DNA of 64,000 bases from an uncultured bacterium (GCA_963705505.1 CAVPJU010000006.1:544001-608000), one strand, 5' to 3'. Positions 7,963 through 15,908 are shown, counted from the first letter of the stretch. Notes: generated by a model not told the origin, from the letters alone. Program-made: numbers and translations.

Positions 7963-9585
7963 TTAGACTGCCGAGGTAGTATATTTTTTTCTCAGACGGT
8001 TTCTGACAAGAATAGCAGTCATGTTTAAAGCAACGACAATTAATATTAAGAGAAGGGCGGTTGTAAATACCATGGGTTTTGCTGCCTCGACGTTGGGGGA
8101 CTGAAAACCCACATCATATATATGAAACCCGAGATGCATGAACTTTCTTTCGAGGTGCACGTAAGGGAAATAGCCGTCTATAGGCAGCTGTGGGGCAAGC
8201 TTGACGACCCCGGTGATCATAAGCGGCGCGACCTCACCCGTCGCCCTCGCGATCGCCAGTATAAGGCCCGTCAGTATGGCCGGCATCGCGCTGGGTATGA
8301 CGATTTTCCAAGTGGTTTCGAATTTAGTCGCACCCAGGGCAAGGGAGCCGTCCCGTATCTCCTTGGGCACCGCCGCGAGGCCCTCTTCGGTCGCGACAAT
8401 GACTACGGGAACGGTAAGGAGTGCGAGTGTCAGAGACGCCCAGAGTATGCCTCCGGTCCCGAACGTGGGGTTGGGCAGGGCTTCTTTGAAGAAAATCTGG
8501 TCTATCGTACTTCCCATGCCGTATATGAAGAACCCTACGGCGAAAACTCCGAACACGATGGAGGGGACGCCCGCAAGGTTATTAACGCATATCCTGACAA
8601 GCCTCACGAGTACGCCCTGCTTTGCATACTCCCTCAGGTATAAAGCCGCGAGAACTCCGAAGGGCAGCACCACTATGCTCATCAAGAACACCATCATTAC
8701 CGTGCCGAATATCGCCGGGAAGACGCCGCCTTCGGTGTTCGCCTCCCTGGGTTCTTCGGAGACGAATTCCCATACATTTGCTATATATAGGGAAAGCTTT
8801 TGAAACCAATTCATTGCGTTCGGTCTGTAAGCGTTTACAATAGTCCCGACCGGCATTTCTTTCTCTCTTCCGTCAATGGACGTCATTACAAACTTTTCTT
8901 TATTAAACTCCTGATAAAGTGAAGTGAGTCTATTTTCCTGTTCCTTGTATTTAATCTCCTGTTCTTTTACCTCGGCCTCGAGTTTGTTGATTTTTTCCTG
9001 ATTATTTCCCCCTTTGAGCTGAAGCCCTTTGAGATGGAGCCTGAGGTCTTCCATTTTCATGTTAATTCCGCCGATTGCACCCTTTTCAATCGACCTTATT
9101 TCATTATATATTTTTTTGTATTTAGGGATTTGGGCTTCGAGCACCGGCCAGCATTCCTCATTGCCGCTGCAGACAACGTTTCCGCTCTCGGTGACTTCTT
9201 TTATGAATCCGTACATGTTGCCCCACTCTCTGCGTTCGAGAACCACGGCGTATTTGGGATGGGTTGTATTCTCTATCTGGTCGTCGTCCACCCATTTGAA
9301 ATCGAGGCCGTATAGATCCCTGTTCCCGATCTTGAGCTGTGTCCTGTATATTTGAGGAGCCTCGGGTCCGGCATTATAACCCTTTACGTTTTCGTGGCCG
9401 GTGATTACACCCATAAGCTTTGTGCCGTCCTTAAGGTCGAGCTGAGCAAGACCGGAAGGCCAGAAGAACCCGAGACCCTTGGCGGCTATGAGGTAAAGGA
9501 GGCCAGCAATCATCAGGAGTGAAAACATCAGGGCAACGCCCGAAAGCCATACGAAAGGATCACCGCTTTTCCAGAATTTATGCAT
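7963..9585 (-). CDS. pstA: Phosphate ABC transporter permease, long form with periplasmic insert
   Basis: EPREANTEGGVFPAIFGT, NNLAGVPSIVFG, ARATGEVAPL. Confidence 0.95.
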   Translation of the reverse strand: MHKFWKSGDPFVWLSGVALMFSLLMIAGLLYLIAAKGLGFFWPSGLAQLDLKDGTKLMGVITGHENVKGYNAGPEAPQIYRTQLKIGNRDLYGLDFKWVDDDQIENTTHPKYAVVLERREWGNMYGFIKEVTESGNVVCSGNEECWPVLEAQIPKYKKIYNEIRSIEKGAIGGINMKMEDLRLHLKGLQLKGGNNQEKINKLEAEVKEQEIKYKEQENRLTSLYQEFNKEKFVMTSIDGREKEMPVGTIVNAYRPNAMNWFQKLSLYIANVWEFVSEEPREANTEGGVFPAIFGTVMMVFLMSIVVLPFGVLAALYLREYAKQGVLVRLVRICVNNLAGVPSIVFGVFAVGFFIYGMGSTIDQIFFKEALPNPTFGTGGILWASLTLALLTVPVVIVATEEGLAAVPKEIRDGSLALGATKFETTWKIVIPSAMPAILTGLILAIARATGEVAPLMITGVVKLAPQLPIDGYFPYVHLERKFMHLGFHIYDVGFQSPNVEAAKPMVFTTALLLILIVVALNMTAILVRNRLRKKYTTSAV

Positions 9586-9632
9586 TTGCTCTGCCTCTAT
9601 TTATTCAGTCGCATTAATCTGATCAATATTAT

Positions 9633-11927
9633 TTATAACTGACCGTACTTCTTTCTGAGCCTCTGTCTTACCAGCTCTGCAGCCGTATTAATAATGAAAG
9701 TAAAGAAGAAGAGTAGAAGCGCAGCCAGGAATAGTATCCTGTAAAGCGTCCCTCCCTGCGGGGCTTCGGGTATTTCCACTGCTATGTTCGCTGACAGTGC
9801 ACGGAAGCCGTTGAATATGCTCCAGTCCATTATGGGCGTGTTCCCGGTCGCCATAAGCACTATCATCGTCTCTCCTATCGCTCTTCCCAAGCCTATCATG
9901 ACGGCGGAGAATATCCCCGGGCTCGCAGTCGGAAGCACTACCCGTATGGCTGTTTGCCAGCGGTTTGCTCCGAGGGCGAGAGAGCCCGCCGCGAGATGAT
10001 TGGGTACGCTCGACAGAGCGTCCTCGGAGATGGTGAATATTATAGGTATGACCGCAAACCCCATTGCGAATCCGACGATTAAAGAGTTTCTCTGGTCGTA
10101 TTGGAGACCCAGTACATTATAGAACCACGCCTTATAATCCCCGCCGAAAATAAAATGCTCTACCGGGGAGTTTATCCAGAGAGTCACTATGACTCCAAGC
10201 AAAATCACGGGGATGAGGAAAAAGAGCTCTGTCCCTTCCTTGAATCTGCCCTTTATTCTTCTCGGCAGATACCCCCAGATGAAAACGGCTATTAATGTGA
10301 ATATCGTGAGGACGATGGGCATAGTAAAAATTGCGGGGATAATTTTTTCGATGACGGGCGCAAGCCAGAGGCCCGCAAAGAATCCCAGTACGACGCTTGG
10401 AAGGGCCGCCATGACTTCTATTACGGGCTTAATCGTGTTCCTGAGCGACGGGTGCATGAATTGTGAGACGCATAGAGCCGCGAAAATGGAAAGAGGTATT
10501 GCGAAGAAGAGGGCGTAGATGGCTCCTTTCAATGTTCCAAAAGCCAGAGGTGTTAAGCTGAACTTCGGCTCAAAGTCATCTGTACCCCCTGTCGACTGCC
10601 ATACGTATTCCGGTTTGCTGTATCCCTCGTACCAGACTTTTCCGAAGAGGGTTGTTAAGCTCGTCTCGGGGTGAGGGTTCTTTACATCCCAGTCGTATAA
10701 TTTTCCCTTTTGATCGACAGCGATTATTCCGTCCGCTTTGGGGGGATAGGCGAGAGTTTTCACAGCCCCGTCCGTTTTGAACGATGCGAGTTGTCGATTT
10801 GATGTAGCGTGATAAAGGTTTATATGGCCCCCGTTGTCCGCGGCTATAAATCCGCGGTCCCGAGTGGATGCAATAATATTCGTCACCGGAAGCTCCATCG
10901 GAGGGAGCTCATGAATCTTTTTTAAAATCTTTCCCCGCGGGGAATCCGGCTCTGCCACTTCGAACCAGACGGACACGTCCCCCGCGCCGTCGCCCACTAT
11001 GAGAGAGCGGTCTCCCAGAAGGAATGCGAGCGCTGTAACCGGGGTATTCGAGTTGGGAGCGGCGGTCAGGACATCTAAAAGTGCAGGGTTCTCTTTATCA
11101 CTCACATCCCAGTGGTATAGCTTGCCGATATTCGTCCCGACATACAGGTTGCCAAGGGACCGGTCGATCTCCAAAGCGGTCACCTTGCTGCCTTCGAGCT
11201 TCTCCGTCAGATCGCGAGTGACCTGCGTTTTTTCTCCTCCGCCTAGTAATCCACCCGATTCGACCATCGCGGAGAAAATAAGGTGTCCGTCGGACGTATA
11301 AGCGGCTGCCGTATCGTTCCCGTCATCGTCTTCTTCATACGCAATTGTGAGGAGCGGGGAGGAGCCGATATTCACGGCATCCTCTTCTTTGACATCCGGG
11401 GTAATGATTCTTTTATCGCCCTGGAAGTCCGCTGCGTAACTCATGCTGACAGGCAGAATCTTGCCGTTTTCGGTACCGAAACTATATAATTTATTGTTAT
11501 CGGACACATAGCTCGAAATTATCTTTGTGCCCTCGAGCCCCGGAAGCTGCACTTTTTTTATGGTGCGCCCGTCTTTAAGAGATAAAAAGACGACCGTCCC
11601 GTCGTTTGCGACTATGAAACCTATTTCCTTATATTGTTCGGTCCCTGCCGCAAGGAACGGGAATTGCCTTTCGTCGGGACTGTCAAGAGAGTAAGAGGCG
11701 AGGTCGGGGGATTCCTTCAGAATAAAAGAACTTGTAAGCTCGGATTTTACTCCCTGCCAGAGGGGAAGGGTCTCGATCCCTATGAATACGAGAATCGCGA
11801 TGATGCATAAAATAATCGCTATTCCGCCGATTGTGACTATAACGGTCGCGATACGGTCGACAAGTTTCCTCCGCTTAACTCCGGAGGAAACCTGTCTTGG
11901 TTCTTTCAGTTTGGTTTTGGGTGCCAC
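9633..11927 (-). CDS. pstC: Phosphate ABC transporter permease with large beta-propeller-like periplasmic domain
   Basis: KVWYEGY...WQST, AALPSVVLGF, GRAIGETMIVLMATGN; WD-like repeats in the N-terminal half. Confidence 0.93.
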   Translation of the reverse strand: MAPKTKLKEPRQVSSGVKRRKLVDRIATVIVTIGGIAIILCIIAILVFIGIETLPLWQGVKSELTSSFILKESPDLASYSLDSPDERQFPFLAAGTEQYKEIGFIVANDGTVVFLSLKDGRTIKKVQLPGLEGTKIISSYVSDNNKLYSFGTENGKILPVSMSYAADFQGDKRIITPDVKEEDAVNIGSSPLLTIAYEEDDDGNDTAAAYTSDGHLIFSAMVESGGLLGGGEKTQVTRDLTEKLEGSKVTALEIDRSLGNLYVGTNIGKLYHWDVSDKENPALLDVLTAAPNSNTPVTALAFLLGDRSLIVGDGAGDVSVWFEVAEPDSPRGKILKKIHELPPMELPVTNIIASTRDRGFIAADNGGHINLYHATSNRQLASFKTDGAVKTLAYPPKADGIIAVDQKGKLYDWDVKNPHPETSLTTLFGKVWYEGYSKPEYVWQSTGGTDDFEPKFSLTPLAFGTLKGAIYALFFAIPLSIFAALCVSQFMHPSLRNTIKPVIEVMAALPSVVLGFFAGLWLAPVIEKIIPAIFTMPIVLTIFTLIAVFIWGYLPRRIKGRFKEGTELFFLIPVILLGVIVTLWINSPVEHFIFGGDYKAWFYNVLGLQYDQRNSLIVGFAMGFAVIPIIFTISEDALSSVPNHLAAGSLALGANRWQTAIRVVLPTASPGIFSAVMIGLGRAIGETMIVLMATGNTPIMDWSIFNGFRALSANIAVEIPEAPQGGTLYRILFLAALLLFFFTFIINTAAELVRQRLRKKYGQL

Positions 11928-12992: not shown

Positions 12993-13029
12993 TTTTCAAT
13001 ACCTCCATAAGAGTTTTAATCTGGCAAGC

Positions 13030-13084
13030 ATTAAAACCGAGTAATGTTAAGGATGTGTTAAGAGAACATTAAACCCTAGTTAAC
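13030..13084 (-). promoter_or_regulatory. Pho-box array and -10 element of pstS
   Basis: Minus strand GTTAACT-N4-TTTAATG-N4-CTTAACA-N4-CTTAACA-N9-TTTAAT: four 11-bp-period direct repeats directly upstream of pstS, resembling PhoP/SphR-type boxes. Confidence 0.8.
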
Positions 13085-13266
13085 GGTATTCCGAGCCCGC
13101 TGGTCTTCGTATATTAATATTTTAAATTAAAATCGGCAAGTTGAATAATATCCCCATAGCCGGGAGCACCCTCAAGATTTCAACCTAACCTCGCCTCTAT
13201 CAAAAATGTATACAACTGATATATGACTTAAGTTAGCCGGTTTGAGGGGACGGGGTTGCGGAGCCG

Positions 13267-13306
13267 GTTAACGGGGGATTAATACGCAATTAATCTTATC
13301 TTCATT
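13267..13306 (+). promoter_or_regulatory. Second Pho-box-like array, upstream of the divergent hypothetical gene
   Basis: GTTAACG-N4-ATTAATA-N4-ATTAATC-N4-CTTCATT, 11-bp period. Confidence 0.55.
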
Positions 13307-13408
13307 ATCCGGCATTATCGTGTGGGAGGTGTTTATAACGGGCCCGGTAATTGAGTCTCAGGTTATTCATAGTAAAAACGGAATTGGATTCGGAGAATAA
13401 TAACTAAA

Positions 13409-13990
13409 ATGGAAATACGATCCGTACATCAGATAGCCAAAAGAGAGTGGGAAAACATCTCGGTATCCCTGGAGCTATGCGGGGACATAGGGAAATTCGA
13501 TCTCGCGCGTTACATCGAAAGAGAGCCCGAATTAATCCGCAATCTTATCGGAATGGAGAAGAAGATTCATCAACATGACTATCTCACAAGGGAAGCCGCC
13601 TATGTGTTTACCGAATTGGGGAAGGAAGCGGGAGGGAGACTCGGGCTGAAAGCGGAGCTGGCTAAAGCTTTCGGGGGCGGCTACAGCTGGGTGAGGACGG
13701 GATGGTTCGATCTTATAAACCTTGAGTTCGATGACCTTGATATTCTGGAGGGACACCTGACCCGTAAGATCTTCTTTTTCAGGCTTTTTTTCCCGCTGAA
13801 AGAGGATTTCAGCTGGCTTTTCGATTCCCCGGCCGTTACTTCGAATTTTAAATCCATATTCGAAAGGTTTTTATCCTGGCAAAGGGACCCCGTTGGCTAT
13901 GACAGGGATTTAGAGTCTTACAAGACCGAGATCGATCCGATCAGGGAGGGACTCGCGTCCGCTCTCGATATACAATCCGGACGCTGCTAG
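13409..13990 (+). CDS. Hypothetical protein (193 aa)
   Basis: Long ORF with ATG start, upstream GGAG and host-like codon use; no family recognised. Confidence 0.7.
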   Translation: MEIRSVHQIAKREWENISVSLELCGDIGKFDLARYIEREPELIRNLIGMEKKIHQHDYLTREAAYVFTELGKEAGGRLGLKAELAKAFGGGYSWVRTGWFDLINLEFDDLDILEGHLTRKIFFFRLFFPLKEDFSWLFDSPAVTSNFKSIFERFLSWQRDPVGYDRDLESYKTEIDPIREGLASALDIQSGRC

Positions 13991-14113
13991 CATTGTATAC
14001 CCTCGAATATCCTCCTAACGATTTTCAGGCTGTAAATTCAGGTTTCAAAATCTGATAATACGAGTATAATTTCATTAAGCTTTATGAATATCTGTCTGTC
14101 CAAGGATTGAAAT

Positions 14114-14191
14114 ATGCGCACATATCTTGTTGTGATTTCGATACTTTTGGCGGCCGTATTCATTACCGCCTGCAAGTGCAATCTCGGTTAA
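14114..14191 (+). CDS. Micro-lipoprotein precursor 1 (25 aa, MRTYLVVISILLAAVFITACKCNLG)
   Basis: AAGGA RBS at 14102-14106, TATAAT at 14065-14070, signal peptide plus lipobox ITAC; paralogous to 14409-14486. Confidence 0.75.
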   Translation: MRTYLVVISILLAAVFITACKCNLG

Positions 14192-14408
14192 ATATGTCCC
14201 TGCGGGACAAAGGTAATCCACTATACGCTTAAGCTCCGGGATATGTCATTTCAATATGCCCGCTGTATCGGCAGTGGAGCGGATTTTCTTCACATGCAAG
14301 TTATGAGAATAAGGCGGAAGCCGATTTGAAGGAAACATTTTGAGAGGCACATTTTAATTGTATAATTCTTTCCTGGTATTAAAATAATTCTCGAAAAAGG
14401 ATATAAGA

Positions 14409-14486
14409 ATGCGCATATACCTGACTTTGTTTTCGATTCTCCTTGTTACGCTTCTCGTTACGGCCTGTCAGTGCGGTATCGGTTAG
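14409..14486 (+). CDS. Micro-lipoprotein precursor 2 (25 aa, MRIYLTLFSILLVTLLVTACQCGIG)
   Basis: AAGGA RBS at 14397-14401, TATAAT at 14361-14366, signal peptide plus lipobox VTAC; 13/25 identical to precursor 1. Confidence 0.75.
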   Translation: MRIYLTLFSILLVTLLVTACQCGIG

Positions 14487-14540
14487 ACGCAGCGGAGAAC
14501 GAATCCGAACCTTAAAACAATCCTTTTAATTCCCGAACGC

Positions 14541-15022
14541 ATGATTCTGATAATAATGGGTGTAACGGGAGCGGGTAAGACTACAGTCGGGAAGCTCCTT
14601 GCCAGGAAGCTCGGCTGGAGGTTTTATGACGCCGACGAGTTCCACCCGAAAGAAAATATCGAGAAGATGGTTAAGGGCATCTCTCTGACCGACGAGGACA
14701 GACTCCCCTGGCTGAGATCGGTTCGTGATTTTATTAAGGGACGAAATGAGCCTGCCGTCATTGCCTGCTCGGCGCTGAAGAAGTCCTACAGGGATATACT
14801 GGAAGGAAGGCTGCGGTCGATATAAAGTTTATTTATCTCAAAGGGAACGCGGGATTGATAAGGGAGAGGCTCGAAGAGAGGAAGGGGCACTTCGCGGGAG
14901 CTCAGATACTCGAAGGTCAGTTCGATGCGCTCGAAGAGCCGGAAAATGTACTGACTGAAGATATTTCGAACGGCGCTGAATCGATCGCGGAAGATATAAT
15001 ACGTGAGCTTAATTTGAGTTAA
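14541..15022 (+). CDS. gntK: Gluconokinase (GntK/IdnK type), frameshifted near 14805-14815
   Basis: [38 protein letters not shown]; the other frame continues DIKFIYLKG...RKGHF...GQFDALEEP to TAA at 15022. Confidence 0.85.
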
Positions 15023-15041
15023 GCGGAAGGCGCAAATCCGT

Positions 15042-15908
15042 TTACTTCACCTTTTTCCTTCTGGCATCGGAGGCTTTTGAGAGTATTTCCATAAGCGCGT
15101 CCCGGTCTCCGTCCGCAATCGCTTTTTCTATTTTGCCGAGAGAAATCTTAAGCTGTCCGATAGCCAAGAGGATGTTTTCTTTATTGGCATCTAGGATATC
15201 AACCCACATTTCCGGAGAGCTTGCCGCGACCCTCGTATAATCATTGAGACCCCCTCCGGCAAAGTTGAAGAGCATATCCGGATCGTCTGTCGAGAGTAAA
15301 GCATCGACGAGAGAGTAAGCGAGTACGTGAGGGAGGTGGCTTACGAAACCGAAAACACGGTCGTGCACGTCGATGTCCATCTCGTGCACCTCGCTCCCGA
15401 CCAGCTCCCATAGCGTCGCGACTCTGCTTTTTACGACGAGAGGGGTTTTTTCGGTGGGGGTCAGAATGAACCTTCTTCCCTTAAAGAGCTTGGGATCGGC
15501 ATACTTGATTCCCGAATTCTCTGTTCCGGCTATGGGGTGCCCTCCGACAAAGTGCAGATTAGGGGGCATGATCTCCTCTATCCCTCTCACGATTTTTCCC
15601 TTTACGCTCCCGACGTCGGTGATGATCGTCCCCTGGGTCACTGCGGGGATTAAGGACTTTGCGGTTTTTACAATAGCTCCGACGTGAGTGGCAATTACTA
15701 TTATCTCGGCTCCGGAGACTCCTTCTGCTATGTCCCGCGATCCTTCATCGATTATTTCGTTCCTGAGTGCGTATTCGATCGTCTCTTCATCTGTATCTAC
15801 ACCGAGCACGTTTTTTACCTGCTTTGAGCGTTTGAGCGCCCGGGCAAGAGAGCCGCCTATGAGTCCGAGACCGATTATCGCAACCTTTTTGAATTCCTTC
15901 TTCTTCAT
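15042..15908 (-). CDS. tyrA: Prephenate/arogenate dehydrogenase
   Basis: GLGLIGGS, TDVGSVK, HPIAGTE, SHLPH. Confidence 0.93.
   Translation of the reverse strand: MKKKEFKKVAIIGLGLIGGSLARALKRSKQVKNVLGVDTDEETIEYALRNEIIDEGSRDIAEGVSGAEIIVIATHVGAIVKTAKSLIPAVTQGTIITDVGSVKGKIVRGIEEIMPPNLHFVGGHPIAGTENSGIKYADPKLFKGRRFILTPTEKTPLVVKSRVATLWELVGSEVHEMDIDVHDRVFGFVSHLPHVLAYSLVDALLSTDDPDMLFNFAGGGLNDYTRVAASSPEMWVDILDANKENILLAIGQLKISLGKIEKAIADGDRDALMEILSKASDARRKKVK

Follow-up and report, generated by a model that had tools for sequence, protein, structure and literature searches.

Tandem 25-codon genes for predicted six-residue lipoproteins in one lineage of uncultured bacteria

Two neighbouring, unannotated 25-codon genes from an uncultured bacterium belong to a conserved family whose products, to judge from sequence comparison, would be bacterial lipoproteins cut down to a signal plus six residues. 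The micro-ORFs are almost certainly expressed, protein-coding genes. The reading that we favour, with moderate confidence, is that they specify Sec/SPII micro-lipoproteins, which would yield triacylated C-x-C-x-Φ-G hexapeptides with one free cysteine. The arrangement as two paralogues is conserved, and the family appears to be confined to one uncultured lineage. What we say of the translation and processing of the peptides, and of where they sit, how they pair and what they do, is inferred from these comparisons. Below, "the window" is the whole 64,000-nucleotide stretch of DNA that was analysed (GCA_963705505.1 CAVPJU010000006.1:544001-608000), and G000 is the genome that contains it, of 2.88 Mb in 10 contigs.

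The micro-ORF pair

The features of the locus are collected in Table 1. The two micro-ORFs have identical residues at 13 of 25 positions (52%), and at seven of the 13 shared residues (Y4, L5, I10, L11, L12, T18 and C20) the synonymous codons differ. In both copies the distance from AAGGA to ATG is 8-9 nt. A sequence-only reading of the window had described the ORFs in these terms, including their equal length, their differing stop codons, and an AAGGA together with a TATAAT 42-43 nt upstream of each copy, and all of its statements about the sequence hold. The upstream sequence GAGTATAATTT likewise stands 5' of one copy in genus g4, one of the genera compared below. A regular-expression scan of the window genome showed these two to be its only hydrophobic copies.

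Table 1. Features of the micro-ORF locus, in positions counted from the first letter of the window
Feature	Position	Strand	Remarks
193-aa ORF	13409-13990	+	shortly 5' of the micro-ORFs; no match in Pfam or NCBIfam
TATAAT -10 box, copy 1	14065-14070	+	43 nt 5' of ATG; inside invariant GTATAATTT block
AAGGA ribosome-binding site, copy 1	14102-14106	+	
Micro-ORF 1	14114-14191	+	25 codons + TAA; MRTYLVVISILLAAVFITACKCNLG; 52.4 bits in family profile; tail of polar type (Asn at +4), MRTYLVVISILLAAVFITAC followed by KCNLG
Short hairpin GTCCC-TGC-GGGAC	14196-14208	+	just 3' of copy 1 stop; no T-run
TATAAT -10 box, copy 2	14361-14366	+	42 nt 5' of ATG; inside invariant TTGTATAAT block
AAGGA ribosome-binding site, copy 2	14397-14401	+	unpaired in predicted mRNA fold
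Micro-ORF 2	14409-14486	+	25 codons + TAG; MRIYLTLFSILLVTLLVTACQCGIG; 56.5 bits in family profile; tail of Gly type (Gly at +4), MRIYLTLFSILLVTLLVTAC followed by QCGIG

A terminator scan of the locus returned none; the hairpin behind copy 1 was not called by it, and is conserved in close relatives only. A search of positions 13000-15500 with Rfam gave a single lncRNA noise match (E 0.79) and nothing relevant. A Pho-box in the promoter of copy 1, judged by eye, was considered and dropped, its candidate repeats being unconserved in an alignment of nine genomes.

Conservation and coding evidence

When positions 13990-14545 were compared by BLASTN with 40 relatives, both copies were matched in genomes of the same genus and in one genome of another genus, with similarity that begins 60-80 nt 5' of each ATG and stops at the stop codon. 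In the nine-genome alignment the -10 blocks are invariant, the SD sites are conserved, and change within the ORFs is mostly at third positions; one orthologue has a GTG start, and the DNA 3' of the stops is unalignable. An SD-like 4-mer is present at -16 to -4 in 98 of 108 distinct upstream regions of the family, against 15.5% of random ATGs drawn from the window's genome, and 62 of the 108 have a perfect TATAAT at a distance of 25-55 nt, against 1.2% for the same background; because the regions are related by descent, these counts show retention and not independent events.

Does selection act on the peptide, as the sequence-only reading had proposed? Among 48 distinct 78-nt ORF DNAs the pairwise difference at codon positions 1, 2 and 3 is 0.427, 0.146 and 0.635, that is, in the order 3>1>2. 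Summed pS is 0.717 and summed pN 0.295, for a pN/pS of 0.41 that is uncorrected, with synonymous sites near saturation. The codon-position pattern, this ratio and the invariant Cys codons bear the proposal out. The same reading had allowed that the ORFs might be truncated remnants whose homologues are the N-termini of longer lipoproteins. Stop codons fall at one position (TAA in 29, TAG in 16 and TGA in 6 of 51 distinct ORF DNAs), and since every strong match ends at once in a stop, none is the N-terminus of a longer protein. A remnant of a longer lipoprotein was a candidate that we rejected; the weak matches of 17-19 bits, in frames of 197-220 aa, are ordinary signals of a different lipoprotein.

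Distribution and descent

How widely is the family spread? A six-frame profile search of 101 genomes of the order found matches in 29 of the 32 other genomes of the same taxonomic family, f1, and in five of its seven genera: g1 (9/9 genomes), g2 (10/10), g4 (7/7), g5 (1/1) and g6 (2/3). Neither g3 (0/1) nor g7 (0/1) gave a profile match, beside tyrA or elsewhere, and syntenic small ORFs were not found beside tyrA in G011, G015, G030 and G025. A broader profile, applied to 120 genomes of the phylum, again gave 29 of 32, with members at 40.6 bits or more and everything else at 19 or less. A tblastn or pattern search had been suggested together with the original description; the homologues that the profiles return have the same length and the same stop position. 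The carrier genomes are labelled Candidatus Dadabacteria or Thermodesulfobacteriota.

Two pattern searches covered wider ground. A strict DNA pattern, run on one genome per species (185,579 species), gave 30 loci, 23 of them true members and the remaining seven plainly non-hydrophobic chance matches. The labels of the 23 true loci are Candidatus Dadabacteria, Thermodesulfobacteriota, 'Deltaproteobacteria', uncultured bacterium or, for two MAGs, Spirochaetia, and all 23 are of one lineage. A looser pattern, in which Arg2, Tyr4 and the final Gly were left free, recovers 46 of 51 known members and found no further match in the window's own genome. In a metagenome collection it found 93 loci with 115 matches; of these, 70 are intact and hydrophobic, and about 64 were judged by eye to be of the same family. 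No second lineage carrying the family appeared in this metagenome scan.

The family is old. In the carrier genera g2, g4 and g5 a PPIase lipoprotein, which also served as a control below, is 42-54% identical to that of G000, and in the non-carrier genera g3 and g7 the tyrA product (prephenate dehydrogenase) is 55-58% identical to that of G000. A lone 25-codon ORF, MGINLLLLSFIFISLFLMACKCELG, was found in G050, which belongs to another family of the order (L080, 1486-1563, minus strand), among other genes than those around the main locus. An SD and a TTGACT-17-TACAAT promoter accompany it, and the N-terminal Arg is missing. Its profile E-value, 0.012 per genome, is one expected once among about 90 genomes; from its exact length and its signals it is a probable distant member of the family.

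Locus context and loss

In all five carrier genera the locus keeps its place between pstS and gntK/tyrA. The order is pstSCAB-phoU (minus strand), the micro-ORFs (plus), a GntK-type gluconokinase (plus), and prephenate dehydrogenase with an aminotransferase (minus). More speculatively, the fact that the locus always lies next to the pst operon might link the peptides to a remodelling of membranes that spares phosphate. In g1 and g4 only, an ORF of 193-201 aa that belongs to no known family lies between the pst block and the micro-ORFs; the g4 counterpart of the ORF in Table 1 (L038:567-1169) is of like size and position, with no Pfam match. The loci of g2 and g6 hold no counterpart, and there the micro-ORFs are directly divergent from pstS.

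Some members of the taxonomic family dispense with the gene: two of the seven genera (g3 and g7) lack it, and it is decaying in G007, a genome of the same genus as G000 (L027 = G007:C9:953625-956699, about 1415-1575 on the minus strand). In G007 copy 1 is cut by a TGA at the Gly(+4) codon, and the ORF of copy 2 is lost while its TTGTATAAT promoter remnant persists.

Two neighbours of the pair in the window are themselves unusual. The gluconokinase gene (14541-15022, plus strand) is split in two frames, one of 94 aa matching TIGR01313 positions 1-90 and one of 55 aa matching positions 108-157. Relatives have one intact frame of 158-207 aa from stop to stop; the split is either a frameshifted pseudogene or an assembly error. 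On the other side, at 7963-11927 on the minus strand, the two genes for Pst permeases are longer than usual (539 and 763 aa). In both, BPD_transp_1 is matched at the C-terminal end only, and the 763-aa protein has a weak WD40-like match in its N-terminal half.

Anatomy of the peptides

By the rules for such sequences, residues 1-20 are a model lipoprotein signal with a lipobox. M1, C20 and C22 do not vary in a set of 42 distinct peptides, in which R2 and A19 reach at least 90% conservation. Positions -3 to +1 fit the lipobox [IV][TA][AS]C in essentially all members; the window ORFs have ITAC and VTAC, with the Cys at residue 20. A larger set of 85 holds the distinct peptides from all loci, about six of which are noise. 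Just before the Cys, at -1, 80 of these peptides have Ala and 5 have Ser; Thr is usual at -2 (66 peptides, with Ala in 12), and -3 is mostly Ile (40) or Val (38), with I, V and L together accounting for 81. Beyond the Cys, 78 peptides have Ser, Lys, Gln, Arg or His at +2, where Asp never occurs, 84 have Ile, Leu, Val or Phe at +5, and 72 end in Gly, 6 in Phe and 5 in Leu. The length is 25 in 83 peptides and 24 in two. R2 is present in both window ORFs and in 71 of the 85, and core residues 3-19 are uncharged. Some members lack the N-terminal Arg, beginning with ML, MH, MS or, in G050, MG.

The PROSITE PS51257-type rule asks for a lipobox [LVI][ASTVI][GAS]C with the Cys at residue 15-35. The two window ORFs satisfy a rule of this kind, and each has a basic residue among its first seven; 130 mostly spurious ORFs of less than 50 aa in the window genome pass the rule as well, which makes the fit weak when taken alone. 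About 100 longer candidate lipoproteins of the same genome have like signals, for example those ending in LITAC and TVTAC. With the N-terminal 20 residues satisfying the lipobox rules, and lgt and lspA both encoded in the genome, the original claim of a lipobox that Lgt and LspA could process is supported. The 'MR.Y' start is a common form of signal in this lineage, to judge by the likeness of the micro-ORF N-terminus to the signal (MRTYTLVLSFLIVGLIVGAC...) of a g2 lipoprotein of about 190 aa (L081, 145-720, plus; L082, 137-715, plus), which scores 17-19 bits.

One tail of each type

The tails beyond the lipobox are of two types, the first with Gly at +4, in the form C-x-C-G-[IV]-G, and the second with a polar residue (D, N, E or Q) there. 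In multi-copy loci each of 36 distinct peptide sets holds exactly one Gly(+4) peptide with one or two D/N/E/Q(+4) peptides (33 sets have one of each, and in three the Gly type is joined by two polar peptides); as the loci are related by descent, the pairing stands for one or a few evolutionary events, not for 36. In most of genus g1 the first copy is of the Gly type and the second of the polar type. G000 and its near relative G006 have helices that are orthologous in order and tails that are swapped, and one of each is still kept. The pairing argues that the two tails do different jobs, perhaps together. The pair is not obligatory, since g6 has the polar type only.

Proposed mechanism

What would become of such a peptide in the cell? 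In our proposal residues 1-19, a Met-Arg start and a hydrophobic core ending in [IV]-T-A, would serve as a Sec/SPII signal. Lgt would transfer diacylglycerol onto Cys20, LspA would cut before that residue, and Lnt would N-acylate it. The product would be an envelope-anchored, triacylated hexapeptide, C-x-C-x-(I/L/V)-(G/F/L), with the Cys at +3 as its free thiol. The window genome encodes LspA (124.7 bits, against an NCBIfam cut-off of 73.95), Lgt (138.9, cut-off 118.9), Lnt (262.7, cut-off 132.9) and LolA (115.9). The sequence-only reading had expected a diacylglyceryl product; because Lnt is also encoded, that expectation gives way to a triacylated one (N-acyl-S-diacylglyceryl). Lol may move the hexapeptide to the outer membrane, a step that is possible because +2 is never Asp. 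As observations on the enzymes themselves, some 330 bp separate lgt from lnt, which share a strand (G000:C10:803667-805935), and a second lgt-like gene, sub-threshold, is at C6:747265-747999.

Genomes normally keep one Gly(+4) and one D/N/E/Q(+4) peptide, which suggests that the two probably act together, for instance disulfide-linked to one another or to an envelope protein. A VKOR-type disulfide-forming thiol oxidase is present in the window genome (99.5 bits); DsbB was not found there. A bolder idea, which we hold tentatively and regard as possible rather than probable, is that these are the first natural lipoproteins made up of signal sequence only, a ribosomally made pair of triacylated hexapeptides that would act as membrane lipids bearing a reactive thiol. 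Joined through Cys(+3), the two paralogues would form a six-acyl disulfide lipopeptide, or they might be an LptM-like rivet of an outer-membrane machine.

There is one further feature of the second cysteine. Cys22 always stands exactly four residues from the C-terminus, in a CaaX-like layout (C-polar-aliphatic-G/F/L), and the window genome has three Rce1-like genes and also ICMT-family genes, all of them unlinked to the micro-ORF locus. The layout and these genes together make it conceivable that Cys22 might receive a second modification.

Alternative readings

Is the N-terminal part only a signal? The 15 residues before the Cys were compared among genomes, with the signals of just two control lipoproteins beside them. 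For the micro-ORFs the best pairs give 0.83 within genera and 0.54 between, a choice of pairs that biases the values upward, and all paralogue pairs give 0.63 and 0.45; the corresponding values are 0.67 and 0.35 for an OmpA-type lipoprotein signal, and 0.56 and 0.30 for the PPIase lipoprotein signal. The hydrophobic part of the micro-ORFs evolves more slowly than these two real signals, which counts against a mere signal, and suggests that the helix itself may be functional. The main rival to our proposal is that the micro-proteins stay uncleaved, each as a single helix whose N-terminus faces the cytoplasm and whose C-x-C-x-x-G end lies at the periplasmic face, and that they serve as small subunits or regulators of a membrane complex; both cysteines would then be free for metal or disulfide chemistry. 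The polar residues Y/H4, T6, S/A9 and T18 conserved inside the helix fit such a role, residues 3-22 are long enough to span a membrane, and basic residue 2 is missing in some members. We nevertheless consider this reading unlikely, if well short of negligible. Essentially every member has a lipobox of textbook form (all 85 peptides have Ala or Ser at -1), an exported peptide with a lipobox would meet the encoded Lgt and LspA, and the probable distant member in G050 keeps the ...ACKCELG tail and not the sequence of the helix. That same conservation of the signal-like part might be explained if the product were the released signal peptide; a minimal lipoprotein precursor would then yield a hydrophobic peptide for signalling, after the manner of the Enterococcus pheromones. 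Such a reading leaves unexplained the conserved C22, tail pattern and fixed distance to the stop, and it is on account of the tail that we think it highly improbable; besides, no receptor or exporter is linked to the locus, and the known examples are Gram-positive.

Two other readings concern the locus more than the peptide. The sequence-only reading had offered, as its alternative, type I toxin-like membrane peptides. On this view antisense RNAs would restrain them, and the tandem copies would be like those of ibs/sib or ldr/rdl. The ORFs are indeed small, hydrophobic, tandem, promoter-bearing and intergenic, and one sigma-70-like site on the minus strand lies just downstream of copy 1 (14249..14220). 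The case for toxins finds little support in the rest of the evidence, and we give it a small chance. What is conserved is promoter, 5' UTR and ORF, ending at the stop, and the minus-strand promoter is not conserved in the nine genomes, in which no conserved antisense element is seen. A promoter scan returned two sites, both on the minus strand, against 1.5 expected (the plus-strand promoters, with their weak -35 boxes, escaped it). At about 37 nt the 5' UTR is short, with the SD free in copy 2, and folding is ordinary, with z of -1.9 and -0.5 for the mRNAs and of -1.8 and -0.3 for the antisense strands. In g2 the copies are merely 42-82 nt apart, and inheritance has been vertical at one syntenic site in five genera, where tyrA products are 54-58% identical to that of G000. 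Could the conserved DNA then have no protein function at all, and be regulatory DNA or leader ORFs for gntK? Copy 2 ends 55 nt before the start of gntK, on the same strand. The pattern of change by codon position, synonymous turnover and Cys codons that never vary speak instead for a selected peptide, no terminator or attenuator-like structure was found, and the ORFs persist at two loci (L022 and L024) from which gntK is gone. A leader peptide of gntK was rejected on this last observation, and we see hardly any likelihood in the wider reading.

Novelty and significance

No Pfam or NCBIfam model reaches its cut-off on the peptides, which give only sub-threshold matches to LPAM_1, FixS/CcoS and the signal part of LptM. 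Six member peptides, looked up as exact sequences, are absent from a collection of 15 billion proteins, and a search of the literature on short lipoproteins, lipobox sORFs and Dadabacteria lipoproteins found no description of such a family. Novelty is judged from these four sources, Pfam, NCBIfam, the exact look-up and the literature.

ORFs of 25 codons are dropped by annotation pipelines. If processed as predicted, the micro-ORF products would be the shortest natural bacterial lipoproteins, with six mature residues. If the proposal is true, they would represent a class of gene-encoded lipopeptides of concern to envelope assembly, redox or metal chemistry, and innate-immune recognition. The strict pairing of one Gly and one polar tail offers a concrete handle for genetics.

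Comparison with known systems

Ordinary Sec/SPII lipoproteins share with the micro-ORFs the Arg of the n-region, the hydrophobic core and the [IV][TA][AS]C lipobox; the micro-ORFs differ in having a predicted mature part of only six residues, with no folded domain. The Pfam model LPAM_1 gives the micro-ORF peptides 10.8 bits against a cut-off of 20. The CcoS/FixS models match the hydrophobic stretch only, PF03597 with 12 bits against 23.1 and TIGR00847 with 12.7 against 28.35.

The closest published precedent that we can cite is LptM (YifL), a small outer-membrane lipoprotein that aids the maturation of LptD in E. coli. According to a preprint, LptM stopped after nine mature residues (C20GLKGPLYF28, a 28-residue precursor) still supports LptD maturation, only C20-P30 is ordered in the LptD/E/M structure, and the authors predict undiscovered lipoproteins that are almost wholly signal sequence (bioRxiv 10.1101/2025.01.03.631273). 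On that account the working part of LptM is a triacylated Cys and a few residues, as is predicted for the micro-lipoproteins, whose hexapeptides would resemble the lipidated nine-residue N-terminus of LptM that rivets LptD; if processed as predicted, they would be a natural case of what the truncation led the authors to expect. There are clear differences. The mature motif given for LptM is CGLKGPLYF, as against tails of CKCNLG and CQCGIG (C-x-C-x-Φ-G), the mature length is about 48 residues as against a predicted six, and side-by-side paralogues are a property of the micro-ORFs and not of LptM. With the LptM model NF047847 the two micro-ORFs score 13.5 and 15.8 bits (cut-off 27.7), over model positions 1-20 only; in a six-frame search of the whole genome with this model copy 2 scores 12.7 bits, as one of 16 sub-threshold matches, the other 15 being N-termini of longer frames. 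The sequence-only reading knew of no described family of this kind. That statement stands in so far as no Pfam or NCBIfam model fits, but a very short functional lipoprotein, of nine residues, and the prediction of others are already published in the LptM preprint cited above.

The sex pheromones of Enterococcus show that the signal peptide of a lipoprotein can be bioactive in its own right (PMC4173765). The precursors there are full-length lipoproteins of Gram-positive bacteria, whereas the micro-ORFs also conserve the residues that follow the Cys, and their host, which has LolA, is a diderm.

Among small hydrophobic proteins, the micro-ORF products are similar in size and hydrophobicity to the type I toxins and small membrane proteins of enterobacteria, such as Ibs, Ldr, ShoB and CydX, which are often in tandem and often missed by annotation. 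The micro-ORFs differ from these in their lipobox and pair of invariant Cys, in a leader that is short and unstructured, in the lack of any conserved antisense element in the nine-genome alignment, and in having been inherited vertically at a single syntenic site.

Triacyl lipohexapeptides are classic mimics of lipoproteins, and Pam3CSK4 is a synthetic one. A natural, ribosomally made counterpart of its size was not found in the literature searched. Pam3CSK4 differs from the predicted micro-ORF product in being synthetic and in its peptide sequence; the architecture of the two would be the same, an N-acyl-S-diacylglyceryl-Cys followed by five residues.
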